From IMG/VR virus record IMGVR_UViG_2660237933_000004: DNA of 40,475 nucleotides, one strand, 5' to 3'. The position numbers and the translations under genes are program-made. The notes below the pieces were generated by a model. That model did not search any database. It saw only the letters and a list, made by a program, of their open reading frames with translations, and was not told the origin of the DNA. Positions 2,669 to 39,107 of this stretch are shown piece after piece; the first letter of the stretch is position 1, and each line of letters opens with the position of its first letter. The DNA comes from a virus (lineage: Duplodnaviria; Heunggongvirae; Uroviricota; Caudoviricetes).

Positions 2669-3717
2669 GAAATCGTCCCCAGTACCGCCAGTTCATTTTT
2701 TGCAATGGAGATATTGTCTGCCGGTGCAAGCAACTGATGGCTGTATTCCCCGTTCGCACCGGAAATCGCTTCACTGATACGCGACACCTTCAGTTCTCCC
2801 TGCGGATAACCATCACGCAGCAGGAACGAACGCAACTCGGCGGTGATGGCAGCCCGTATTTCTGGTGTATCCGGCGTCACACGGATATGAAAATCCACCG
2901 TATGCGCCACCGGCCTGAACACATACAAATCAGAGCCTGCCACCGGGGCCAGTGGCTCGATATGCAGCCTTGCCGCCGTTTCCGTTGATTCTTCCGGAAT
3001 GGGATTAATCAGGTCGCTGCTGGCAATCATCACACCGACAGTCCCCGTTCCCATCCAGTGTCGGTATGTCCATGCGCGGGTAATGCCGGGAACTTCTTTA
3101 GCCCAGACGACATAGTCCCCGTCAGCCCCGCCCTGAGGCGTCCAGTAATACCGCTCAATGACGCGGGCGCGCCACGTTTCCAGCTCTTCAGTATCAAATC
3201 CACCTGTCAGTGTATCTGCCACGCCGGAAGACGGCAGACCATTCACCGGCGTGACCAGGATTAATGACGTACCGTCGTCAGCGTTACCGACCGCGCCTGC
3301 ACTTGAGCAGGCGATCGGCACGCGCAGGACACCACCGGAGCTGGTTGCATCGGCAGTTGCCGTGTACTGCACCAGGTCATCGCGCTGAATAACACTCCCG
3401 GCGGTCACCTTCAGGCCATCGCTGACACCTTCCCAGCGCATATACCCGCTGGCAGCCGTGGCCCCCTTGCGCGGACATCGTTTCATCGCAGCATGTCGCG
3501 CCAGCCAGGACTCATCGCACAAGTCAGGCAGCATGTTCATTGCCAGATAATCGATGTACCCGTAAACCGTATGCAGCGCCGCCGCATACACCTTTGCCCG
3601 CACGTCTTCATCCATGCGCCGGAGCGTGTCGCTGACGTCCAGCCAGGCGAATAAATCGTTACGGAGCATACTGATATTTTCTGCCAGCGTCGGGCGCTGA
3701 AATTCACTGTCCGCCAT
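2659..3717 (-). CDS. Baseplate J-like protein (Mu gp47-like)
   Basis: 352 aa; position in contractile-tail baseplate cluster; size typical of the baseplate J family. Confidence 0.6.
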
Positions 3718-5756: not shown

Positions 5757-7087
5757 TGCACTGGCACCTTCAGAGGGATCACCGGCACAAAGCCGGGATG
5801 CGTAATGGCATTACGCCGGATAATGTCCGCGTCACGCGCCGCGTTATCAAACCAGGTCGCCGCCAGCACCAGCGCGGGTAAGACCTCATCCGGCGTGCGC
5901 CGAATGATCCGTGCAGACTGTTCAAGGCGCGTGTTGATATCCGCATTCAGATCTGCTTTCACCCGGCGCAGTGCCAGAAACAGCGCATCACTGGTTGTAC
6001 GGGACAACTCCTTATCAATTGCCGTATTCAGTGTGTCGCGAATGTCAGTCAGCTCTTCCCACGTTGGCAGGTCAACCGTGTTTTTCACCGCCGGTGCATT
6101 GTTCAGTGCCGGATGCGTGACAGAAGGCCAGCCAGTGCTCTGCGCGGGTGTTGTTGCCTGCCCCACTGCGGAATTCTGCATCACCTCGGAAGTTGTTGGC
6201 GCAGGCAATCGGGTGACGGCATACGCCGCTTCGCTGATTGCGGTCGTACGAAGGGTGCTGGCAACCACGTTACGCTGCTGCGTCGCCGTGGCGGTGGTTT
6301 TACTGTCCGTTTTCCAGACGCCGCGCGGTTGCAGATCGCTGCCGAGGCTGACACCGGAAAGCGTTTTGATCATGGTGACCAGGTCGCTGGCGTTACCATA
6401 AAGGCGTTTCCCGGTACGCCACATTTTCTGCACCTGCTCAACGAAATTTTTGCCTGACGATGGCGGCGGCAGAAGTACCGAGATATCCCCCTGCAACAGC
6501 CTGGCGGCATCCGATACGGCAGAATCCACCACTTTCATCGCATCAGAAACATACCCCAGCATTATGCTGGCATTATCGATAACGTCGTTCTGCACGAAAT
6601 CCGCCACACCATCGATACTGAAACCGCTGAAGCTGTCACTGATGCAGTCATCCAGTGCAGAACAGGATGACATCAGCGTCTGCGCCGTCGCCGCACCTGA
6701 TGTGGGGTAAGAGAGTTCTCCTGCTTCGACAAACTTCAGGTCAAAGCGGACAATACGCCCTTCACTTTTCGATGTGCTGACCCGAACTTCCCCGTCAACA
6801 CAGACTTTCAGCTCACCATATGTCGGGTGGACAAGCGTGCCGGGACCGGGTTTATTCAGCGCTTCAATCAGGCGATCGCGCTGGTCAAAGCAGTCATCTC
6901 CCACCACATAAGCTGTGATGGACGGGCGGAAAGTGACTTTTCCCAGATCTTCGGTATAGGGCTTGTCGCGGTTCGGGTATTCATGTGTTTCCACACGGCG
7001 ACCGGTTCCCGCACTTTCTTCTTCAACCTTAAACGGCACACCTCGAAATGACGCATCCTGAAGCCTGTCTTTCCACGTCATATACAC
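5753..7087 (-). CDS. Tail protein (Mu gpN DNA circularization protein-like)
   Basis: 444 aa; N-terminal region looked Mu N-like from memory; downstream of tape measure. Confidence 0.5.
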   Translation of the reverse strand: MYMTWKDRLQDASFRGVPFKVEEESAGTGRRVETHEYPNRDKPYTEDLGKVTFRPSITAYVVGDDCFDQRDRLIEALNKPGPGTLVHPTYGELKVCVDGEVRVSTSKSEGRIVRFDLKFVEAGELSYPTSGAATAQTLMSSCSALDDCISDSFSGFSIDGVADFVQNDVIDNASIMLGYVSDAMKVVDSAVSDAARLLQGDISVLLPPPSSGKNFVEQVQKMWRTGKRLYGNASDLVTMIKTLSGVSLGSDLQPRGVWKTDSKTTATATQQRNVVASTLRTTAISEAAYAVTRLPAPTTSEVMQNSAVGQATTPAQSTGWPSVTHPALNNAPAVKNTVDLPTWEELTDIRDTLNTAIDKELSRTTSDALFLALRRVKADLNADINTRLEQSARIIRRTPDEVLPALVLAATWFDNAARDADIIRRNAITHPGFVPVIPLKVPVQ

Positions 7088-7090
7088 TCC

Positions 7091-7125
7091 GAAAATAAAA
7101 AAGCCACCTATTAGAAGGTGGCCTT
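7091..7125 (-). terminator. Intrinsic terminator after the moron gene
   Basis: Minus-strand hairpin (GCCACC / GGTGGC stem, 8-nt loop) followed by TTTTTTATTTT, 20 bp after the stop of the 7143-7673 gene. Confidence 0.5.
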
Positions 7126-7142
7126 GTAATGAATTTTATTAA

Positions 7143-7673
7143 TTAGCGAGTCAGAAACAACGAATCTTTATACTTTTGCTGTTGTTCATTTAAATACTTA
7201 GCTGTTTCATCGCTGGCAAATGGAAATATTACCGTATTTTTAGGCATGGTAATTTCTTTTTTGTCCAGCGTCAGAGTAAACATAGGAACATACTGAGCAG
7301 AGTAACGCACCGCAGAAACGAGCTCTAGTTTAGACTCTTCAATAACACTTAAATTATCCAGGCTAACTTTCTCTTCATCTTTTTTCTTTGACGCATTTAA
7401 AGTTTTTATTACTTTATTTAATTTCTCCTGAAAATCCTCCTTAAAGTTTTCAGGATTGCCGTCGACAACAAGAATCTGTTCACCCTGATTATCTGGAAAA
7501 ATAATCTTTGCACTTATCAATTTATTTTCTTTATAAACATCACCAAGTTTTATGGCTCCTCCAGATAACTGAATAATATGTTCATCTTTAAAGGAGATGT
7601 TGCCAGAGATTATGAGAGATGAAAAAATAGCCGCTGCTCCAAGAATTACACTTGCTGTGATATAGCCTTTCAT
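7143..7673 (-). CDS. Hypothetical membrane-anchored moron protein
   Basis: 176 aa; N-terminal hydrophobic helix (VILGAAAIFSSLIIS) then Lys/Glu-rich soluble domain; markedly AT-rich versus flanking tail genes; own promoter-like sequence and terminator. Confidence 0.6.
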   Translation of the reverse strand: MKGYITASVILGAAAIFSSLIISGNISFKDEHIIQLSGGAIKLGDVYKENKLISAKIIFPDNQGEQILVVDGNPENFKEDFQEKLNKVIKTLNASKKKDEEKVSLDNLSVIEESKLELVSAVRYSAQYVPMFTLTLDKKEITMPKNTVIFPFASDETAKYLNEQQQKYKDSLFLTR

Positions 7674-7764
7674 TTTTCGCCTATTAACATTTTTCTAAAT
7701 GTGCATTAATTCTATCACTCTATTTATGACTTACAACCAGCAATACATGTGAGGGGAATCCTGG

Positions 7765-9597
7765 CTACCAAAATCGGGTATAGCCAACATCGTGATTTAT
7801 ATCAATGCCACTGGAGCGTGTTTCCGTAACCCGCATACCTGGTGGCATATTTATAAATGATACCTTGATCTCACCATCAACTTTTGGCGCGGTAGCTTTA
7901 TTAATCATGAAGGGATTCGGGCCTGTGGCATCGGAGGCGTTGTTTGCCTGAGCCGGATCCACCGCCGGATAAGGAGTGTATCCCCGTGCCGGTATTCCCG
8001 TCCCATAAGCATCATAAGCACCCGCGCCCCACTGCGCAGAGTTAATGGCATCGACCGTGTCACCGGAACTGTCGGTAAACCACTCAATAATTGGCTTCAG
8101 CTTGTCCCACATATCCTGAAACCACTTAACAACCGGCCCCCAGTTATTGATCACCATCCCCAGCGGCGACCAGGCAAAAACTTTCTTAAGGAGTTCCCGG
8201 CCAGCCTCAAAATAAGGACCAATGGTTTCCCAGAGCTTCTTGAAATAAGGTCCGACAACATCCCAGTTAGTGATAATTAATCCCGCAGCCAGGGCTATCG
8301 CCGTCGCAATCATGCCAATCGGCGTCATCGACATGATCCTGCTGACAATGCTGATGGCACTGCCCACGCCCATCAATCCCAGTTTCAGAATCGCAAGACC
8401 GGCAGCAAGCCCGACGACGCCGCGAATAACCCGGGGATTTTCATCCGCAAACTTCGTGAATTTTTCCCCTAACTCCCCCAGCCATTGCGTGATATTTTTG
8501 GCGTCACCAGAAAATGCGCCGCCAATAGCCGCAAGGCCGTTAGTTGCGGTCCCCGTCATTGCCTCCCACAGGTTGGACAGCGTACCAAGCTGGGCCTGAA
8601 CACGTTTATTCAGGCTGGCCTGTTTATTCATCTTCTGCTGGATCTGATCGTAGCCATCCTTTCCTTTATCGATTAGTGCATTGACCACCTGAAGGGTTTC
8701 GGCATCATCACCAAATATTGCCTTAAGTACACCTGTTCGCTTAACGTCGGTCAGTTTTCGCAGCTTTGCCAGTTGCCTGAACATGTTATCAAGACCGCCA
8801 AAACTCCCTTTGCCGTCAGTAAAATCGAGCTTTACTCCGAGTTTCTGGCGGGCCATGATTTTATTGACGTCCCTGATTTTCTTAACGCTTAATCCGGACT
8901 GGATAACTTTTCGCAGGGCATTACCTGCCGACTCCCCGTTCATCCCCATCTGATCCATCATGACGCTGATGGGGGCAAGGCTCTGTGCAGCCTGAAGACC
9001 GTCCTTGTTCACCATCTTCAGAACAGAACTGGTTTTAGTGAAAAAGGACAACATGTTGGTATCGTCAACGCCCAGATAAAACGCCTTCTGGATAGTGTCG
9101 AACAGCCCCATCATGTCTTCTGACGCCGTTCCGGTAGCATCCTGCATCTTTGCGGCAAACTCGGCAGCCGCTTCCGGTGTTTTTTTCAGTTGTACCGCAA
9201 GATAAGCTGTCGCTTTACCCACACCGCCCAGAATGTTTTCTGCCGGGATCCCCTGACGCACCAGCATCTGCATCATGTTCTGGAAATCAGCCGTTGTACC
9301 GGGTAGCTGGTTACCCAGACCAATAGCCAGTTTATTGATGTCCTGAAAGCGCTTTCCGACCTCACCGTTCGCATCCATCATGGCAACTTTCAGCCCGGTG
9401 GCGGCATTTTCCTGATCGGCATAAGATTTCAGGGAAAGCGTCAGACCCGCAGCCAGTCCGCCACCAAGCGCCAGCCCACCCTGTGACGCTTCTTCAGCCT
9501 GGCGTTTAAATCCCCGGATTTTCTTTTGCATTTTCGACAGCGCGGGAGAAAGCCTGTCGACACCGGTGATCAACGCCTTAAGCTCAAATTCAGCCAT
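7765..9597 (-). CDS. Tail tape measure protein
   Basis: 610 aa with Gly/Ala-rich and hydrophobic segments; follows the frameshifted chaperone pair. Confidence 0.8.
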   Translation of the reverse strand: MAEFELKALITGVDRLSPALSKMQKKIRGFKRQAEEASQGGLALGGGLAAGLTLSLKSYADQENAATGLKVAMMDANGEVGKRFQDINKLAIGLGNQLPGTTADFQNMMQMLVRQGIPAENILGGVGKATAYLAVQLKKTPEAAAEFAAKMQDATGTASEDMMGLFDTIQKAFYLGVDDTNMLSFFTKTSSVLKMVNKDGLQAAQSLAPISVMMDQMGMNGESAGNALRKVIQSGLSVKKIRDVNKIMARQKLGVKLDFTDGKGSFGGLDNMFRQLAKLRKLTDVKRTGVLKAIFGDDAETLQVVNALIDKGKDGYDQIQQKMNKQASLNKRVQAQLGTLSNLWEAMTGTATNGLAAIGGAFSGDAKNITQWLGELGEKFTKFADENPRVIRGVVGLAAGLAILKLGLMGVGSAISIVSRIMSMTPIGMIATAIALAAGLIITNWDVVGPYFKKLWETIGPYFEAGRELLKKVFAWSPLGMVINNWGPVVKWFQDMWDKLKPIIEWFTDSSGDTVDAINSAQWGAGAYDAYGTGIPARGYTPYPAVDPAQANNASDATGPNPFMINKATAPKVDGEIKVSFINMPPGMRVTETRSSGIDINHDVGYTRFW

Positions 9598-21664: not shown

Positions 21665-22137
21665 ACCTCAATCTCTCTGACCGTTCCGCCTGCTTCTTTG
21701 AATTTTGCAATCAGGCTGTCAGCCTTATGCTCGAACTGACCATAACCAGCACCCGGCAGTGAAGCCCAGATATTGCTGCAACGGTCAATTGCCTGACGAA
21801 TATCACCGCGATCAATCATCGGTAAAGCGCCACGCTCCTTAATCTGCTGCAATGCCACAGCGTCCTGGCTTTTCGGAGAGAAGTCTTTCAGAGCAAGCTG
21901 CTTACGGTAAGCATCCCACCAGCGTGAAAGAAGCTGATAACGTCCGGCGGCTGTTGATTTAAGTTTCGGGTTTAGCGTGACAAGTTTGCGAGGATGATCG
22001 GAGTAATCAGTAAACAGTTCACCACCAACAATAACATCATAACCGTGGTTACGTGTCGGTTGTCGCCCGTTATCCGTTCCTTCTGACCACGCCAACATAT
22101 CGAGGAAAGCTTTACGCTGAGGATTAAGATTTTGCAT
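21661..22137 (-). CDS. R: Endolysin (lambda R-type lytic transglycosylase)
   Basis: 158 aa, near-identical to lambda R from residue 6 onward. Confidence 0.9.
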
Positions 22138-22441
22138 TTTTCACCCCTGTCAGTCGTTCCCAGAAGTACGTCAGTGCAACCGAACCCATCGCACCACTAA
22201 TCCCCGCTGTCGCGAGAATCATGTAAATACTGAATCCACTTTCGATACTGATCAGGCCACCAATAACACCGGTGAATCCCGATACCACTATCTGAGCCAG
22301 AGCATTTATCCAACTCCACGTTGCTTTACTCTGCTTCACATCTATCAGGTAGCGGACCAGACCGCCCCAACCTGCGATGATCAGCAAAACGAGCCAGAAC
22401 GCTCCGGCAAGGCTCTCTTTTTCGTGCATATGAATAGCCAA
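22124..22441 (-). CDS. Holin
   Basis: 105 aa with about three hydrophobic helices and charged C-terminus; overlaps the endolysin start. Confidence 0.55.
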   Translation of the reverse strand: MAIHMHEKESLAGAFWLVLLIIAGWGGLVRYLIDVKQSKATWSWINALAQIVVSGFTGVIGGLISIESGFSIYMILATAGISGAMGSVALTYFWERLTGVKNAKS

Positions 22442-22657
22442 TGTTTCGCCGCCGACGAAAGGCCGGGACGCTAATGATTAAAAACTTACATGGGAAATAT
22501 TGTTATAAACAGTCAATTCAAAATAACTAAAAAATCTTATAACCAAGCGAATGGCCTTCAAAAACCAATATATGCAACTTGTATAAAACGATCTTTATCA
22601 ATGAGTTACATGTATGGTTAAATACTATGCTTTAAGGACTAAGAGTATTACCAGCAG

Positions 22658-23461
22658 ATGACAGAAAAAGATAACATTGGTAAGTTAATTTGGCATATTG
22701 CTTGCGATGAATCTGGCATTGATGGACAACGTTTCTACGGCTTTGGCAGTCTGTGGATGAAGTACCAACGCCGTGGGGATTTCTGTCAACTAATCAGAGA
22801 ACTACGCGGAAAACATGGTTTTTTTGAAGAAATAAAATGGCAAAAAGCCCATTCAAAAAGATACTCTGAATTTTATCTTGAGCTGATCGACTTATTCTTT
22901 AGAGTTCCTTGGCTAGCTTTTCATTGTATCGTGGTTGAAAAATCAATAGTAAATAAGGCATTTCATAATGGAGATTATGACCTGGCAAGGAGAAAGCACT
23001 TCACAAATCTCATTACCACAAAAATTAGCTCTGTAATTTCTGCACACCCTGAAAGAGACAGTTACTTCAGGATTGAAGTTGATCCTATCGCATCTCGTTA
23101 TAAAAAGGCTGATGAAGAACTAAATGTTATTGCCAATAACATATTGAATAGAAAATTTGGTCGTAAAGGGATAATCAGCAGTGTAGTGACAAAAGACTCT
23201 AAAGCATCTGAAAACATTCAGCTAGCCGATTTTTTCTTAGGTGCGGTTATGTGCGCATATCAAGGAAAAGCTTCATCTGAAGCCAAAATAAGAGTATCAA
23301 ACTATGTTGCTTCATATTTAGGCTGGGATCACTTGCAATATGATACATGGCACACTGAGAGAAAATTTAATATCTGGTATTTTTATGATAAAACTCGAGG
23401 GCCACGAGATATAGAAACTCAAAATGTTAGCTTGAAGTATCCACTTCCCAAAAAGAAATAG
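22658..23461 (+). CDS. DUF3800-like protein (function unknown), opposite-strand moron between Q and holin
   Basis: 267 aa; N-terminal DESG and C-terminal QLAD motifs as I recall for DUF3800; AT-rich; AT-rich upstream region. Confidence 0.6.
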   Translation: MTEKDNIGKLIWHIACDESGIDGQRFYGFGSLWMKYQRRGDFCQLIRELRGKHGFFEEIKWQKAHSKRYSEFYLELIDLFFRVPWLAFHCIVVEKSIVNKAFHNGDYDLARRKHFTNLITTKISSVISAHPERDSYFRIEVDPIASRYKKADEELNVIANNILNRKFGRKGIISSVVTKDSKASENIQLADFFLGAVMCAYQGKASSEAKIRVSNYVASYLGWDHLQYDTWHTERKFNIWYFYDKTRGPRDIETQNVSLKYPLPKKK

Positions 23462-23682
23462 ACGTCGACCTCTCAGCCGACACGGTTGGAGTCCCAGACC
23501 AATTATCGAGTCGAAGTTACCAACTTGGCGGTTATCTTTTGGGAGCCGCCCCTTCATTCCCAAAACCTTTATTGCAGAAAAATCTATATCCTAGAAATTG
23601 GATAGTCAACCCTTACTACATCTACGAACAGTTGCACATACAACATTGGCAGAATATCAGATTTACATAAAATATATGCTTT

Positions 23683-24372
23683 TTAATCCAGTTTTGCAAT
23701 ACTTTGCTGTGAAAATGTGGTCTTTTGTTTTGAACGTGTTCTCGTTACAAGCAATAAAGCTTCGCTATCAAGCTGTAGAAAAATGTGCTTCATTGCAACC
23801 CAGCGTTCAGTGAATGTCTCAGACCAGTTTTTTGATGTCACTCCCACCAGTGATGCCAGTTCCCGGTATTCATAAGTCTCACGCCCAGCCAGCTCGCTCT
23901 TCACATCCTGTGCTGCCAGCCAGATCAACTTCTTTAAGCGTTCCAGTGTCTTACTGGCAATTTTTCTTGTACCTAACAGAGCCTTAAACTCGTTCCATGC
24001 CCACTGCGTTATGGCAACCTGATGCTCCCAGCGAACACTTTCGCTGTAACTCCACAGCAACCACGCTTTCTGATGTTCATCGAGAGACAGAACCGCGCGG
24101 CGCCATGACGAGGTTGAGAACTCAACCTGGCTGACCAGTGCAATGGATGAACCTTTTGCGTACGACTGCTTACCGGAAATCGGCGGATTATCCAGCGTAA
24201 TCATCCTGCCAGTTACCTCATCCAGAATGCGCGGCTTCTTTCGTTTGTATGTACCAGTATCAAATTGTGCATGCTCCAGACAGGCTTCAAGCTGGCCTTT
24301 CGTTGCTCCGCTCAAATCAGCGGTAGCCACAATGAGTTGCTCGCGGACATACTGTAAATATTGGGTATTCAT
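23683..24372 (-). CDS. Putative late-gene antiterminator (Q-like), by position
   Basis: 229 aa ORF immediately after rusA/ylcG and before the lysis cassette; not lambda Q-like in sequence. Confidence 0.4.
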   Translation of the reverse strand: MNTQYLQYVREQLIVATADLSGATKGQLEACLEHAQFDTGTYKRKKPRILDEVTGRMITLDNPPISGKQSYAKGSSIALVSQVEFSTSSWRRAVLSLDEHQKAWLLWSYSESVRWEHQVAITQWAWNEFKALLGTRKIASKTLERLKKLIWLAAQDVKSELAGRETYEYRELASLVGVTSKNWSETFTERWVAMKHIFLQLDSEALLLVTRTRSKQKTTFSQQSIAKLD

Positions 24373-25773: not shown

Positions 25774-26274
25774 GCTTCACCTCCGCAGAGATCAAACGCT
25801 GGATGCAAGACATCGCAGGTGCATTTCTGCATCTGTGACAAGGTAAGGAGTTCAGATTGTGGTCGCATTTAAGTCCCCTTAAATGCGCAGAAGTCACCGG
25901 AGTTGTTCAAGCTCCGGTGACATTATTATGGAAGGTTGATACTAAAAAATCAAAAATTGAATATCATTGGCGATAGTCTAGCTTGTGATATCCACAAGCT
26001 ACTTCAATGAAGCGACGAGTAACATTTTGTGTCATCCATGTTTTTTCAGTTAAGTGCCACACCCAGTTCAAAATTTGCTGATGGGTTGAACATGTACTAA
26101 GCGGGATGTTGTATTCATAAGCAACATTGATTCCGCAAAATCGGTGTCGTGTCATGACCGATTCACGTTGACCTGCGCCCTGTTGAGTGCCTGGGGATAT
26201 TCTTGCTCGATAGTTAATATCATAGTAGTTACTTTACTTTCATACCATAGCACGGTTGAAAAAGTGATTATTAC

Positions 26275-27801
26275 TCAAAAATAAACCTCACCATCAACCA
26301 TATATTTGAGAGTACTTATCGCCTGCTGGGCGGATATTGTTTTCATTAAAGGATAGTGTTTAAAAACAATGCCATTCATAAAATAGATATCACAGGTTTT
26401 ATTATCTGTATTGATTATGATTTTTTCGAATGTTTTATAGGCAAGTGTACGACATAGCTCTCGCCCATTTTTACTGGTTAAGTCAATAGCATGAAAATCA
26501 CCAAGTGAACTCACCGCTTTACTCTTCAAAGTTTTTAATGATACAGAAGCCCTTCGTAATTCCTTATCTAATACTCTGATTTTTTCTGCTATAGCGGTAA
26601 CTTCAGGCGCAACAGATAATGCAGCAATTAAATTATTAATTTTCATCTGGAGCTCAATAATTTTCAACTCTAAAGTTTCATTAGCATCTTTCTTGTTTTC
26701 AACTGGTTGGATTTTACTACAATTAAAAAGCAACTCATTAATGATATTATAATCAACCAAATCTCTCTTTATTGATGGCCTGTCACATCGATGCAGTCTT
26801 CTCATCGGACAAACATAATAGCCATGCAAACTTCCAGATACCGCATGAACAATCATGGTATTACCACAAGCCTCGCACTTCATAACTGTTCGAAGTAGAT
26901 TTATCAACATAGGATTTTTGCTACTATTGCTAATACCAAAAGGTGCCAACCGAATTTCCTGCACAGCGTAAAACAAATCATCTGATATGACTCTGGGATA
27001 ATAGCCAGCGATTTCACTTATTCCTTTACCTCTTGCACGATATGAAGGTACGCATATACCTATCAGAGCTTTATTCGCTAATAATTTTTCAATTACAGAA
27101 GGCCCCCATGCACTTTCTTTGCCTGAGAAATTTTTTACAGCATGATCATTTAAATACTTGGCTATTGCATTCAATGATCGCCTTTCCATCCTGAGTTTAA
27201 AAATTAGCTCAATCGTTTTCACCCTGTCGGGGTCTGGAATAAAAGCTGTTCTTTTGTCATCCAATGAGAGCCATCTCGGACAAGACGCCGTCATAATCGT
27301 GCCTGACTCCAGTGCATCCTGCCGTTTTTTCTTCCATGATAATTTAACCCGACTTGACTTTATCTCGCTTTCTTCATTTGCCCTTTGTGCTATAAGTATG
27401 GCTTTTATTAATGAATATGGATCATTCAAAGAGTCAATATTATAGACTGTATTATCGCAAAGAGTTATAACATCAATACCGTGATTCAAAATCAATTTCA
27501 GACGCTCAATCGCTTCACCGACTTTTTCTCTTGAAAGTCTGTCCAAACTTTCAACTAACAATGTAGTTCCTGGCAATATATAACCATGCTCTATAGCATC
27601 TAAAAATTCCGAAAAAGCTCCTGATTGTGCATGCTTTCCTTTGAATGCACTTAATCCTAAATCTTCATATGTTATGGTATCAAGATAATAATCACTATTT
27701 ACCTTTAACCATTCAGCAATAAGTCTTCTCTGTCGGTTTAATGAGTCGCCAGACATCTGACCTGGTGATGAAAATCGCATATATGCTATGGCTTTTTTCA
27801 T
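26275..27801 (-). CDS. ybcK: Large serine recombinase (YbcK-like)
   Basis: 508 aa; N-terminal resolvase motif YMRFSSPGQ...SLNRQ, Cys-rich zinc-ribbon region (CEACG...CPMRRLHRC); AT-rich. Confidence 0.8.
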   Translation of the reverse strand: MKKAIAYMRFSSPGQMSGDSLNRQRRLIAEWLKVNSDYYLDTITYEDLGLSAFKGKHAQSGAFSEFLDAIEHGYILPGTTLLVESLDRLSREKVGEAIERLKLILNHGIDVITLCDNTVYNIDSLNDPYSLIKAILIAQRANEESEIKSSRVKLSWKKKRQDALESGTIMTASCPRWLSLDDKRTAFIPDPDRVKTIELIFKLRMERRSLNAIAKYLNDHAVKNFSGKESAWGPSVIEKLLANKALIGICVPSYRARGKGISEIAGYYPRVISDDLFYAVQEIRLAPFGISNSSKNPMLINLLRTVMKCEACGNTMIVHAVSGSLHGYYVCPMRRLHRCDRPSIKRDLVDYNIINELLFNCSKIQPVENKKDANETLELKIIELQMKINNLIAALSVAPEVTAIAEKIRVLDKELRRASVSLKTLKSKAVSSLGDFHAIDLTSKNGRELCRTLAYKTFEKIIINTDNKTCDIYFMNGIVFKHYPLMKTISAQQAISTLKYMVDGEVYF

Positions 27802-28057
27802 GGTGACACCTGCTAACGTATGCTTTTATAAACCTTAGTGGTGAGATATAATTTTTGTTTAATTTTTATTTAAAAAGACAATTAAGGTCACATTATCTTG
27901 AATATACAACAATAATCGTATTGCAATTTTCTTACGCCATAATCTTGAAAGCACAAAAGAATACATAAAAAAATAAAGACATTAACAAAAAGCATAAAAC
28001 GAGGCTCATATAAATATAAGAGCCTCCATATTTTAGTCGTTTAGAAACAAATTATTT

Positions 28058-28390
28058 TTAATGTGGTGTGCTTCGTGACAATAAATTAATAACCAACACT
28101 CCGGCACAAATCAACATCATGCCTATAATGGCTGGCATGTCCAGCCGTTGGCCGAAAAATCCCCATGACAGTAAGCTAATCAGGACAATACCGACTCCTG
28201 ACCAGATAGCATAAGCAATCCCTGTAGGAATATAAGCCAGCGTCTGCGCTAATAACCAGAATGATGCACAATAACAAATAATTGTACCAACAGATGGCCA
28301 TAACCGTGTAAAACCTTCTGAAAACTTCATTAAGGTTGTACCAATGACCTCTGCAAGTATTGCACCACCAAGATAAATATAAGGGTTCAT
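28058..28390 (-). CDS. emrE: Small multidrug resistance efflux protein EmrE
   Basis: 110 aa from MNPYIYLGGAILAEVIGTTLMKFSEGF; four TM helices; matches E. coli EmrE from memory. Confidence 0.85.
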   Translation of the reverse strand: MNPYIYLGGAILAEVIGTTLMKFSEGFTRLWPSVGTIICYCASFWLLAQTLAYIPTGIAYAIWSGVGIVLISLLSWGFFGQRLDMPAIIGMMLICAGVLVINLLSRSTPH

Positions 28391-28457
28391 AGCATATTCT
28401 TTCCTGTTCAAACTGGAGAGAATTGTACTACAGTTTGAACTCAACTCACCTGTTTCA

Positions 28458-28760
28458 TCATTGTGTACCCATTGATGTTCTTTTATATACCCTCAATACC
28501 CGTTTCATCGCGGCACTCTGGCGACACTCCTTAAAAATCAGATTCGTGCTCACCTTTCCTTCCCGTTCTTCTCTGGTAGCGAACCGGTAATACACCGTTC
28601 GCCAGACCTTACCATCAACGACCAGGATTCCTGCCCGCGCCATTTTAGCCGCAGCCTGATTTATGCTGGTTACGGTTGCGCCTGTTACCGCGGCAACGTC
28701 CTGCGCACAGAAGTTCTTATGAGTCCCCAGGTAATGAATAATTGCCTCTTTGCCTGTCAT
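28458..28760 (-). CDS. ren: Ren
   Basis: 100 aa, near-identical to lambda Ren through the first ~90 residues. Confidence 0.75.
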   Translation of the reverse strand: MTGKEAIIHYLGTHKNFCAQDVAAVTGATVTSINQAAAKMARAGILVVDGKVWRTVYYRFATREEREGKVSTNLIFKECRQSAAMKRVLRVYKRTSMGTQ

Positions 28761-31310: not shown

Positions 31311-31350
31311 AACAACCTCCGTGGTTAATTTGAATCAAGATTAAAACTGT

Positions 31351-31371
31351 GGTTGTTTTTAGTCAACAACC
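31351..31371. promoter_or_regulatory. Candidate OR operator palindrome
   Basis: GGTTGTT-TTTAGTC-AACAACC perfect 7-bp inverted repeat between cro and cI; the same GTTGTT/AACAAC hexamers recur at the pL region. Confidence 0.35.
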
Positions 31372-31414
31372 ATTTTCGTTTGATGGAATAAAACCTTGGT
31401 TGTACATTTGGACT

Positions 31415-32104
31415 ATGAAAACAACACTCTCAGAAAGACTTAAAGAAGCCAGATTAGCGCGAGGCCTTACACAAAAGGCGCTTGGGGATTTGGTCGGGGT
31501 TAGCCAAGCTGCTATTCAGAAAATCGAAACAGGGAAAGCTAACCAAACAACTAAAATCGTGGAGATCGCGAACGCTTTGGGTGTGCGCGCAGAATGGTTA
31601 TCTTCTGGCGTTGGAAATATGTCAGACAGTACAGTGCAACCAATACCATCAACTGTCAGCCATTCCAAATACTTTAAGATTGACGTTCTTGATATAGAAG
31701 TGAGTGCCGGGCCGGGAGTCATCAACCGTGAGTTTGTAGAAGTTCTACGCTCGGTTGAGTACTCGTTTGACGATGCTCGTCACATGTTCGATGGTAGGAA
31801 GGCAGAAAATATCCGCATCATTAACGTACGCGGTGACAGCATGTCAGGAACGATCGAACCAGGTGATCTGCTGTTCGTTGATATCACGGTTAAATCTTTC
31901 GACGGTGATGGTATCTATGCGTTTCTGTATGACGACACCGCCCATGTAAAGCGCCTGCAAATGATGAAGGATAAGCTACTGGTTATCTCTGATAACAAGA
32001 GCTACTCGCCGTGGGACCCAATTGAGAAAGACGAGATGAACCGGGTATTCATCTTCGGTAAGGTTATTGGGAGCATGCCGCAGACATACAGGAAGCATGG
32101 GTAA
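31415..32104 (+). CDS. cI: CI-type prophage repressor (HTH plus S24 LexA-like autopeptidase domain)
   Basis: 229 aa from MKTTLSERLKEARLARGLTQKALGD; C-terminal GDSMSGTIEPGDLLFVD Ser nucleophile motif and a downstream Lys. Confidence 0.85.
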   Translation: MKTTLSERLKEARLARGLTQKALGDLVGVSQAAIQKIETGKANQTTKIVEIANALGVRAEWLSSGVGNMSDSTVQPIPSTVSHSKYFKIDVLDIEVSAGPGVINREFVEVLRSVEYSFDDARHMFDGRKAENIRIINVRGDSMSGTIEPGDLLFVDITVKSFDGDGIYAFLYDDTAHVKRLQMMKDKLLVISDNKSYSPWDPIEKDEMNRVFIFGKVIGSMPQTYRKHG

Positions 32105-32183: not shown

Positions 32184-33029
32184 ATGAAGCTTAACTTTTA
32201 TGCCGTATACATTCAAAATACTAGCTCTCTGAAAAAACAACCTATAGATTTATTGTCATTTCTGACAGAGCAGGTAATAAACGCTAAGAATCATGCTCAG
32301 CAGATTGAAGACTACTATGTTTTTGCACATCATATAATTAATGATAGTTTTATCCTGACAAAAACATTTGATTCAGAACTAGTTAAAAAAATCAATAGAA
32401 AAACACTTTCGGTTGATGAAATAAGAAATGCGCTTAGTTCAGATGAGTCATTAGGATTCCCATCATTTTTATTAATAAGAAAAAATATTATCGGATATGC
32501 AAATACATTATTCGGCCCAAAAACTCGTGATCTTGCAGCTTACCTAAAAGGAAAGGGAGCAATACCTGATGGATACTCACTATTCATAGAACCTTTGATG
32601 AGAGATATAACAAAGGATGATGCTTTAAGCATGCAGTTTATAGGAAGAACAACGGTAAGGGTTGAAAATGGGTCAAAACTTCTCAGCCCCCTACTTAGAG
32701 TGCTTGGTGCACAAGCAGTTGACGAAGAGCTCTTAGAAGGACTGGAAATAACCGTGAAGCCTAAACGTTTACGAAATATAAAATCTGTTGCCAAAGGGAT
32801 TATTAGCAATGTGGATGAACAACATGAGAGCATTCACCTGAAGGGTAAAGAACAAGCTGCAGATATTCTTACAGAATATTATCTTTCTGACAAAGGCCAC
32901 ATTGGAGCAAATATCTATAAATCATCGAATGAAGACATAGCATCCGAAATGTCAACTTGCTATCTCAGGATGAAATTGATTATAATGGAAAGTTATAATA
33001 GAACATTTGGAGATGAGTTACCACTATAA
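32184..33029 (+). CDS. rexA: RexA-like abortive-infection protein
   Basis: 281 aa directly downstream of cI; conserved segments ESLGFPSF, IEPLMR..TKDD, FIGRTTVRVE, ILTEYYLSDKGH match lambda RexA from memory; AT-rich. Confidence 0.7.
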   Translation: MKLNFYAVYIQNTSSLKKQPIDLLSFLTEQVINAKNHAQQIEDYYVFAHHIINDSFILTKTFDSELVKKINRKTLSVDEIRNALSSDESLGFPSFLLIRKNIIGYANTLFGPKTRDLAAYLKGKGAIPDGYSLFIEPLMRDITKDDALSMQFIGRTTVRVENGSKLLSPLLRVLGAQAVDEELLEGLEITVKPKRLRNIKSVAKGIISNVDEQHESIHLKGKEQAADILTEYYLSDKGHIGANIYKSSNEDIASEMSTCYLRMKLIIMESYNRTFGDELPL

Positions 33030-33031
33030 TA

Positions 33032-33487
33032 TTGGGGGGCTATATGAAGTCACGGCACAGGATAGCGCCAGCAATAATACTTTTTCTTTTGCCATTCCCA
33101 ATTATTATAAGTGCGTATTATCTAATCCGCCACATGTTTCCGGGTATGGCTTTTAGCGAGCACAGAGATGCGCTGGGTGGCGCTATTGCCGCTTATTCTG
33201 GTACTACAATTGCGATACTTATAGCCGCTTTAACATTTCTGATGGGGCTGGGAGGCAGGAATATTCGCAAATTGAAAACATATGGCTATATGACATCAAT
33301 CATAATCATGTATGGATTAACTTTTTGCGAGCTAGGAGTACTTTTCTTTAATGGCTTGTTTTTACTTGCAACAAGTAAAAATCCTATACTAATGCTACCA
33401 TCAATCGCTATTGGTTTATCAGGTACGTCACTAATCCATATTGGCATGCTCCTGATGCAATTACTTAATCTGTCAAAACATAAGTAA
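33032..33487 (+). CDS. rexB: RexB-like membrane protein
   Basis: 151 aa, four hydrophobic helices; FSEHRDALG...TIAILIAALTFL...YGYMTS closely matches lambda RexB from memory. Confidence 0.7.
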   Translation: MGGYMKSRHRIAPAIILFLLPFPIIISAYYLIRHMFPGMAFSEHRDALGGAIAAYSGTTIAILIAALTFLMGLGGRNIRKLKTYGYMTSIIIMYGLTFCELGVLFFNGLFLLATSKNPILMLPSIAIGLSGTSLIHIGMLLMQLLNLSKHK

Positions 33488-39031: not shown

Positions 39032-39107
39032 TGGTGCCGATAATAGGAGTCGAACCTACGACCTTCGCATTACGAATGCGCTGCTCTACCAACTGAGCTA
39101 TATCGGC
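39032..39107 (-). tRNA. thrW: tRNA-Thr (anticodon CGU), thrW-type
   Basis: Minus-strand 76 nt GCCGATATAGCTCAGTTGGTAGAGCAGCGCATTCGTAATGCGAAGGTCGTAGGTTCGACTCCTATTATCGGCACCA; cloverleaf with CGT anticodon; 3' CCA. Confidence 0.9.

Follow-up and report, generated by a model that had tools for sequence, protein, structure and literature searches.

A DUF3800 gene and a convergent RNA of the lambda 6S family share one cassette between the Q and holin genes of a tailed phage

The stretch of DNA considered here, IMG/VR virus record IMGVR_UViG_2660237933_000004, comes from a tailed phage (Caudoviricetes) and is 40,475 nucleotides (nt) long; it is called the window below, with positions counted from its first letter. 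Between the antiterminator gene Q and the holin gene it carries a cassette that combines a DUF3800 protein gene with a second, convergent gene for a structured RNA, whose sequence and predicted fold place it in one family with the 6S RNA of phage lambda. The start of the holin gene and the stop codon of Q bound the interval 22442-23682 exactly, and the gene order after the holin is GH24 lysozyme, Rz and Bor. The sole long open reading frame (ORF) in the gap lies on the + strand, opens with ATG and has a GC content of 0.35-0.39 (about 0.36) against about 0.50 in Q, holin and lysozyme. The original prediction, made from the letters alone, had seen here a single AT-rich DUF3800-like gene, a lone moron of a family without assigned function, set between a Q-like antiterminator and a holin and transcribed against the late operon. 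The neighbours are indeed a PF06323 Q protein and a LydA-type holin, and the gene does oppose the late operon under a conserved promoter of its own on the + strand; the gap, however, also holds the convergent RNA gene, and the family is not blank, since a fold and links to retrons, Cas12a2 and RNA motifs have been published for it.

The borders of the inserted DNA follow from the comparison with PhiR47_2, a cargo-free sibling phage with the same Q and holin genes (94% and 98% identical, respectively), in which only 232 base pairs (bp) stand in place of the AT-rich cargo. In a blastn comparison, the homology of the window with PhiR47_2 is confined to 23900..23639 and 22474..22001, and the 232-bp native leader holds two ordinary terminators and no copy of the RNA motif, which argues that the RNA entered this phage together with DUF3800 as one unit of 1,164 bp. 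The two genes are one cassette, 22475-23638, and this anatomy, a protein gene with a convergent RNA gene, is hardly in doubt. On the Q side, the 44 nt that follow Q are common to cargo-free relatives, and the homology with PhiR47_2, phage 434 and phage 82 stops at 23639-23654. The unit is a moron in the sense of Hendrix and Juhala, being extra DNA between two genes that neighbour each other in a related phage, with its own promoter, a terminator-like hairpin (He) and a deviant GC content. A megablast search of the interval against 50,697 phage records gave no match, and relatives were reached only by tblastn and distant blastn; a search for terminal inverted repeats or transposon ends flanking the unit turned up only short matches at chance level (for example 11 nt at 22569/23630). 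A 43-aa (amino acid) ORF at 22490-22621 was disregarded, its coding sequence not being conserved in other loci. Labels such as L004 or L058 below denote compared loci or contigs, L239 being phage lambda, L242 PhiR47_2 and L245 the Mannheimia phage PHL101.

The RNA was discovered by comparing the 500-nt gene flanks of 72 viral contigs found via the protein and of several genome loci, where a block of about 100 nt right after the stop codon is 76-96% identical while the proteins are only 64-87% identical. The RNA gene, about 115-120 nt long, is co-directional with Q and holin, and five helices, named Ha to He (Table 1), are predicted in its transcript; the 5′ strand of Hb lies within the loop of Ha, so that the two form an H-type pseudoknot. 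Across 45 distinct sequences, in an alignment fitted to a covariance model, 92.6% of the pair cells are standard, a share that falls to 55% or less once the partners are shifted by 1-3 columns, and compensatory (two-sided) changes occur in 20 of the 34 pairs, values that none of 500 shuffles reaches; in a MAFFT alignment restricted to the main group the paired share is 93.9%, and nine pairs have compensatory changes. Ha is wholly rewritten in other lineages (GAGUUAGGG/CCCUAACUC, GAUAACAAG/CUUGUUAUC, UGGUGAG/CUCACCA, GAGAUG/CAUCUC), Hb covaries as GGCAG/CUGCC or GGUAG/CUGCC, and Hc appears elsewhere as GUUCG/CGAAC or GUGAG/CUCAC. The excess of G-U over A-C cells in the alignment (173 against 29) shows that the RNA is read from the - strand. 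The case for an RNA structure is thus one of covariation. Searches of Rfam 15 at the gathering threshold and at E <= 10, on both strands, gave no relevant match for the window, the 200-nt region, the lambda leader or five other loci. In the A2/A4 alignments the N of the GNRA loop (window 23473; A, U or G) tends to co-vary with the unpaired base 23493 (CUGG[G]ACUCC), 5′ of the Hc 3′ strand, and this co-change may reflect a tetraloop-receptor contact.

The association of the RNA with the protein gene is nearly complete within the clade. With covariance model R1, exactly one motif per locus was found in 74 of 74 loci, always on the opposite strand and touching the stop codon, and the misses within the DUF3800 clade are contigs cut at the gene end; the same convergent layout with one motif recurs in 10 further genomes and 32 viral contigs. 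With filters off, model R2 also detected the motif (55.8 bits) at the end of a 48%-identical homologue in the Mannheimia P2-like phage PHL101, downstream of tail gene D. Where the flank of a homologue can be read, at 48-100% protein identity, the RNA is nearly always present and in one fixed geometry, both in lambdoid and in P2-like phages, whose hosts are Enterobacterales and Pasteurellaceae; the contexts range from E. coli Q82-type lambdoid prophages and a phage with a lambda-type Q (PF03589; L081) to the P2-like phage Chuche, where the cassette adjoins the portal gene, and P2-like Salmonella prophages, where it follows int. In 171 diverged locus pairs the identity is 81% for the RNA, 76% for codon positions 1 and 2, 41% for third positions, which are saturated, and 30% for the DNA beyond the RNA promoter. 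The two genes have been co-inherited over the long term, always in one arrangement, in different types of phage and in two bacterial orders. Their occurrence is asymmetric, as for a toxin and its antidote: the RNA stands without DUF3800 in 14 of 24 genome matches and at 48 of the 80 viral loci. For the protein of this clade the reverse was found only at two Vibrio-like loci and one Sorangium locus, and every examined locus of Enterobacterales and Mannheimia that has the protein also has the RNA. In PHL101 a feature annotated as a plain terminator (3317-3345, -) lies within the 6S-like motif (3262-3386), and this motif reaches 30 nt into the 3′ end of the DUF3800 ORF. In the Salmonella locus L004 the Rfam small RNAs STnc490 and isrN (7368-7491 and 8304-8446) follow shortly after the DUF3800/RNA pair, where a P2-like prophage has its edge, and adjoin an IS3-family transposase. 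The homologue of Vibrio coralliilyticus (L007, 5135-5830), which is without the motif, directly follows a gene with a TIR_2 domain in a neighbourhood resembling a defence island.

The relation to lambda emerged from the copies that lack the protein gene. A 25-nt motif pattern has 33 matches in 100,044 species genomes, nine of them in unrelated phyla (about the number expected by chance) and rejected by the model; the model accepts the remaining 24, which all come from Enterobacterales and of which only 10 have DUF3800. In these genomes a copy without DUF3800 follows a Q-like antiterminator gene of its own strand at a distance of 60-110 nt, the Q families being PF03589, PF06530/DUF1133 and unassigned Q-like types; at some loci the motif follows a CI-like repressor gene. 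DUF3800 adjoins the 3′ end of the motif in 32 of the 80 viral loci, and most of the remaining 48 have Q just upstream. These free-standing copies keep all helices, and model R2, built from 73 diverse copies, matches phage lambda at 44609-44719 (+) with 81.3 bits (E 1.5e-20) and all five helices, between the hexamers of the late promoter PR′ (TTGACT 44553-44558, TAAATT 44576-44581) and the tR′ hairpin, whose U-run ends near 44781. By our own reading of the sequence this match corresponds to about nt +22 to +132 of the 194-nt 6S RNA, and the window has the layout of such late leaders, with the motif (23570-23458) following Q (stop at 23683) in the same orientation and preceding the lysis genes, a layout seen after Q genes of PF06323, PF03589, PF06530/DUF1133 and unassigned types. 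The RNA beside DUF3800 is, as judged by model score, helices and layout, a member of the family that includes the lambda 6S core. Lambda 6S RNA, the late-leader transcript that runs from PR′ to tR′, is made in lysogens, occurs as species of about 194 and 121 nt and has no assigned function (PMC7547250; 10.1101/2024.10.31.621285), and Rfam 15 holds no family for it. The window RNA differs from it in having its own promoter about 10 nt upstream, without the Q-loading leader of about 21 nt, in ending at its own last hairpin rather than at a separate tR′, and in being joined to a convergent protein gene. In the P22-like phage SF6 the motif lies between the antiterminator and holin genes; neither R1 nor R2 matches HK022 or P22, and an identity with the HK022 put antiterminator RNA or the P22 late leader was rejected on that ground. 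The annotated lambda orf-64 (44621-44815) starts inside the structured core, and the conservation pattern of a base-paired RNA at 44609-44719 casts doubt on it as a coding gene. The locus L156 carries at 6284-6391 (+) a motif copy that lacks DUF3800 although its score (106 bits) is like that of the DUF3800-linked type, followed on the same strand by an ORF of 477 aa (6753-8186) with no Pfam or PADLOC match, apparently a different cargo in the same slot.

Table 1. Features of the cassette and its flanks (window positions; a dot marks a feature without strand).
Feature	Position	Strand	Remarks
Holin, LydA-type	22124..22441	-	PF16083, phrog_785; first lysis gene met by late transcription beyond the cassette
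Cassette, 1,164 bp	22475..23638	.	PhiR47_2, the cargo-free sibling, has 232 unrelated bp here
DUF3800 promoter block	22586..22623	+	79-92% identical across loci with saturated third codon positions
DUF3800 protein gene	22658..23461	+	267 aa; predicted RNase HII-like fold
Helix He with CUAUUUCUUUUU, intrinsic-terminator-like RNA end	23450..23483	-	Terminator scan, sequence
Structured RNA, lambda 6S core homologue	23458..23570	-	About 113 nt; covariance models R1 (111 bits) and R2 (96 bits)
Helix Ha	23565-23558 with 23544-23537	-	UUUUGGGA/UCCCAAAA in the window
Helix Hb (pseudoknot)	23550-23546 with 23531-23527	-	GGCGG/CCGCC
Helix Hc, long-range	23524-23520 with 23489-23485	-	GUUGG/CCAAC; encloses Hd
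Helix Hd, variable hairpin	23512-23509 with 23500-23497	-	
Helix He, 9-bp hairpin	23483-23475 with 23470-23462	-	GNRA loop, GAGA at 23474-23471
Sigma-70-like promoter of the RNA	23581..23609	-	Promoter scan: TTGACT, 17 nt, TAGATT; -10 ends 10 nt before model position 1
Putative late promoter PR′, Q82 type	23671..23699	-	Promoter scan: TTGCAA, 17 nt, TATATT; overlaps the end of Q
Q antiterminator, phage 82 type	23683..24372	-	PF06323, E 1.4e-94; 95% nucleotide identity to phage 82 Q

The protein is a DUF3800 member as proposed (Pfam PF12686, 41.8 bits over residues 16-197, E 2.3e-10, against a cut-off of 21), matches phrog_3732 (E 6e-137) and has no model in NCBIfam. The two motifs named in the original prediction, DES(G) and QLAD, are present among the positions invariant in 30 homologues down to 53% identity, which comprise D17-E18-S19-G20, D142, D152-E153, D180-S181 and I187-Q188-x-x-D191. 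Structure prediction and fold comparison give, with high model confidence, an alpha/beta fold like that of RNase HII, H2 and HIII; no sequence relationship with these enzymes is detectable, and the window protein has about 70 extra C-terminal residues with invariant positions of their own. RNase HII carries a D-E-A-G motif, which D-E-S-G resembles, and since no residue-level alignment to RNase HII (RnhB) was obtained the catalytic residues are assigned by this analogy only. The model suggests a candidate nuclease. The predicted fold is consistent with the RNase H2-like fold predicted earlier for DUF3800, and the family has further been described as an effector domain of type VII retrons, in a variant that accompanies Cas12a2, and in association with 11 RNA motifs (PMC7736814, PMC10910872, PMC5737381). 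In PADLOC the family is listed as a candidate defence component, the protein matching the PDC-M04A models PDLC04353 (E 1.4e-34) and PDLC04354 (E 1.3e-15), which also match the Mannheimia and Vibrio homologues; a literature search found no paper mentioning PDC-M04. Component A of PDC-M04 is matched, whereas no second protein component was found beside the gene (upstream ORFs in Salmonella and the ORFs of the window were inspected and have no Pfam or PADLOC match), and the conserved partner here is the RNA. The gene occurs in 67 of 5,426 complete E. coli genomes, at full length in 44 and cut by IS1 or deletions in others; the partial matches H26 and H28, considered as alternative cargo, are IS1-mediated truncations. 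Two of the 67 cassette copies are on plasmid-labelled records, NZ_CP172337.1 (44.8 kb) and NZ_AP023208.1 (70 kb), which may be phage-plasmids or excised prophages.

The two genes abut closely, as He ends at 23462, next to the DUF3800 stop codon TAG at 23459-23461, and the U-tract CUAUUUCUUUUU that follows the hairpin is the complement of the final DUF3800 codons (KKK-stop). Hairpin and U-tract together look like an intrinsic terminator, and a U-rich tail is found in roughly half of the related loci. Upstream, a -35/-10 pair recurs in a constant position in nearly all main-group loci, its -10 stopping 4-15 nt short of the motif and the DNA around it being otherwise unrelated, and at several loci a terminator lies just upstream of this RNA promoter. 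At L058-L068, L076 and L077, which have homologues of about 65% identity, a terminator 5′ of the motif on the RNA strand leaves no room for a promoter. Further upstream, the conserved 44 nt after Q contain a TTGCAA/TATATT promoter-like site, 23699-23671, which is probably PR′ of the 82 type. Late transcripts starting there would cross, in order, the promoter of the RNA, the RNA gene in sense, He with its U-tract, DUF3800 in antisense and the holin gene; the orientation of DUF3800 means that late transcription must cross it antisense. Expression in the lysogen, silencing during lytic growth and a role in defence, as proposed originally, remain hypotheses.

The promoter block of the DUF3800 gene is near-invariant across dozens of loci, as AAACGATCTTTATCAA-N4-TTA ... 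TGnTTAAAT. The hexamers, as read from the sequence, are a -35-like TTATCA (22595-22600), preceded by GATC (22590-22593), and, after a 17-nt spacer, TGn with a -10-like TTAAAT (22615-22623). Over the -35 lies TATCAATGAGTTA (22596-22608), a perfect fit to WATCAANNNNTTR, which we take to be the consensus of integration host factor (IHF), and hence a putative IHF site. The combination of GATC, the IHF-like WATCAANNNNTTR match and the extended -10 hints at Dam- or IHF-dependent control. The 5′ end of the mRNA shares a stretch of 10 nt with the RNA (AAAAGAUAAC); it runs in the same sense, offers no complementarity and was judged to be chance.

The pair resembles several known systems without coinciding with any of them. 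The DUF3800-associated RNA motifs DUF3800-I to XI, drum and skipping-rope (Weinberg et al. 2017, PMC5737381) are alike in being conserved structured RNAs beside a DUF3800 gene, on either strand and often ending in a terminator; the RNA of the window matches none of those in Rfam 15 (DUF3800-I, -IX and others), is a relative of lambda 6S RNA and is also widespread without DUF3800. Type VII retrons (Mestre et al. 2020, PMC7736814) likewise combine a DUF3800 effector or partner domain with a structured non-coding RNA in a defence-type locus, whereas the cassette has no reverse transcriptase and holds only the DUF3800 ORF and the RNA, with Q and holin as neighbours, and the retron DUF3800 lacks the Q of QxxD that the window protein keeps. 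With type III toxin-antitoxin systems, such as ToxIN and the pseudo-ToxI RNAs of phages, the likeness would be in the proposed principle only, a nuclease checked by a cognate structured RNA, with look-alike RNAs that give phages an escape.

On these grounds the reading that is favoured, tentatively, is that of a nuclease with a cognate RNA, a toxin/antidote-like module that would serve exclusion or abortive infection. The RNA would bind and restrain, or otherwise tune, the DUF3800 nuclease; in the lysogen both would be made from their own promoters, and basal PR′ transcripts stopping at He and the U-tract would add to the RNA supply. An incoming phage might upset the RNA supply or the complex and so free the nuclease, leading to exclusion or abortive infection, while upon induction Q-modified polymerase would read the RNA gene in sense and DUF3800 in antisense, so that late read-through would supply more antidote, silence the nuclease gene and let the resident phage spare itself. 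Free-standing 6S-like RNAs of lambda-like phages could then act as antidotes to such nucleases. This reading is preferred because the RNA is often alone while the protein, at the Enterobacterales and Mannheimia loci examined, is not; because a PADLOC defence candidate sits in known cargo hot-spots (the Q-lysis junction and the P2 sites near the portal gene or int); and because resident late transcription would, by the layout, raise the RNA and oppose the nuclease gene. Its boldest extension, in which the lambda 6S family is the cognate partner RNA of DUF3800 nucleases, the abundant and constitutive short PR′ transcript of lambdoid phages serves at least partly as antidote or decoy against the DUF3800 nucleases of resident prophages, and the cassette is a poison-plus-antidote exclusion module, is considered unlikely.

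Several observations speak against a coupled nuclease-RNA module or weaken its parts. The architecture differs from that of known type III toxin-antitoxin systems, with no tandem RNA repeats and with a single RNA convergent to the protein gene instead of upstream on the same strand, and the protein has an RNase H-like rather than a ToxN-like fold. The RNA family is found mainly in late leaders without DUF3800, which implies a function of its own, present or past; no motif is detectable at the Vibrio-like homologues L007 and L057, at the Sorangium homologue or at an E. coli phage fragment of 30% identity; and the L058-type subgroup has a strong terminator hairpin with a U-run directly 5′ of the motif and no visible promoter. 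As for the structures, the minimum free energy of single-sequence folding is unremarkable and uninformative (z = 0.16), a sequence profile against the PDB finds no solved relative of the protein, and hhalign gives no alignment of DUF3800 with E. coli RnhB, for which an approximate query sequence was used.

The same co-inheritance would equally fit an RNA that is a required cofactor, scaffold or activator, DUF3800 being then a ribonucleoprotein nuclease like TnpB or IscB with omega-RNAs or Argonaute with its guide. An RNase H-like fold is common to PIWI and RuvC nucleases, and several RNA motifs of the 2017 survey are said to have proved later to be partner RNAs of nucleases. The RNA, however, shows no obvious variable segment of the guide type, the variable Ha and Hd remaining base-paired, and it is widespread without the protein; even with DUF3800 linked to at least 11 unrelated RNA structures (PMC5737381), this explanation seems somewhat unlikely. 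A similar weight is given to the absence of any coupling, where a 6S-like late-leader or terminator element flanked the spot of the original DUF3800 insertion and has since been carried as a promoter/terminator insulator and recombination linker, with DUF3800 acting alone, as the original prediction had assumed. That the motif is mainly a leader element downstream of at least four Q families, that its last hairpin and U-tract can serve as a late-leader terminator shielding DUF3800 from basal PR′ transcription, and that the A-type-like motif of L156 (106 bits) precedes a different gene would all be expected. For insulation, though, a plain hairpin would do, yet the whole 107-nt fold with its pseudoknot is kept with compensatory changes, also beside DUF3800 in Q-less P2-like phages and in two bacterial orders at saturated synonymous sites, and the stop-codon junction never drifts.

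The convergent, abutting genes and the lack of an intrinsic terminator on the + strand between the stop codon and the motif would suit a cis-encoded antisense regulator of the kind seen in 3′-overlapping type I pairs (txpA/RatA), with degradation of an mRNA/RNA duplex of about 110 nt; since neither a conserved tertiary fold nor G-U pairs on one strand are needed for this, and the free-standing copies of lambda-like phages have no DUF3800 mRNA as partner, it is judged quite unlikely. Finally, the 6S-like RNA might be the target, with DUF3800 cutting the late-leader RNA or its R-loop in superinfecting lambdoid phages and so blocking their late genes. The RNase H-like fold is consistent with such a role, and so is the place of the motif, with which the late transcript of many lambdoid phages, among them lambda, begins; the resident cassette, also in P2-like phages, nevertheless carries the same RNA and would be a constant self-target unless protected, which makes this the least probable of the explanations and, on the whole, a very unlikely one.

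The association of DUF3800 with RNA has been known since 2017 (PMC5737381) and is still unexplained. Three points appear to be new, namely the homology between lambda 6S RNA and the partner RNA of the enterobacterial and Pasteurellaceae clade, the conserved pseudoknotted fold of this RNA, which is absent from Rfam, and the movement of protein and RNA as a cassette; a literature search, which left most subscription journals outside its scope, found no paper stating the homology, the fold or the cassette, and an older description of a 6S structure may exist. DUF3800 is a widespread family that keeps company with retrons, with Cas12a2 and with orphan RNA motifs, at least 11 of them, and lambda 6S RNA is among the oldest known phage transcripts, unexplained since 1971 and still given no function in papers of 2020 and 2024. 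The locus joins the two in the best-studied phage-host system, E. coli and lambda, and offers a testable lead on both, together with a covariation-supported fold of the 6S core made up of a pseudoknot and three helices. If the coupling is functional, the pair would be a new protein-RNA exclusion module, perhaps with an RNA-based counter-defence; if it is not, a conserved RNA structure of late leaders still needs explaining.

Elsewhere in the window, a RexA/RexB pair (32184-33487, +) lies beside a cI-like gene (31349-32104), with matches to Pfam RexA (E 4e-59) and RexB (E 8e-41) and to PADLOC RexA (E 3.5e-115); the lysogen E. coli SCU-485, NZ_CP053245, with 99.8% identity, carries a near-identical prophage that has a HipA-family kinase and a DUF3037 gene in this position, which marks it as a second swappable slot for cargo or defence genes. 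The two also differ at 25955-28731, where the window carries a large serine recombinase (26275-27801, -), an SMR-family transporter (28058-28444, -) and a very AT-rich stretch (GC 0.32, about 26200-26800), and the SCU-485 prophage NADAR and phosphoribosyltransferase-like genes. Beyond the integrase end of the prophage, a transfer RNA (tRNA) gene at 39035-39107 (-), with 71.8 bits the only match in the window at the Rfam gathering level, could be the attachment site.

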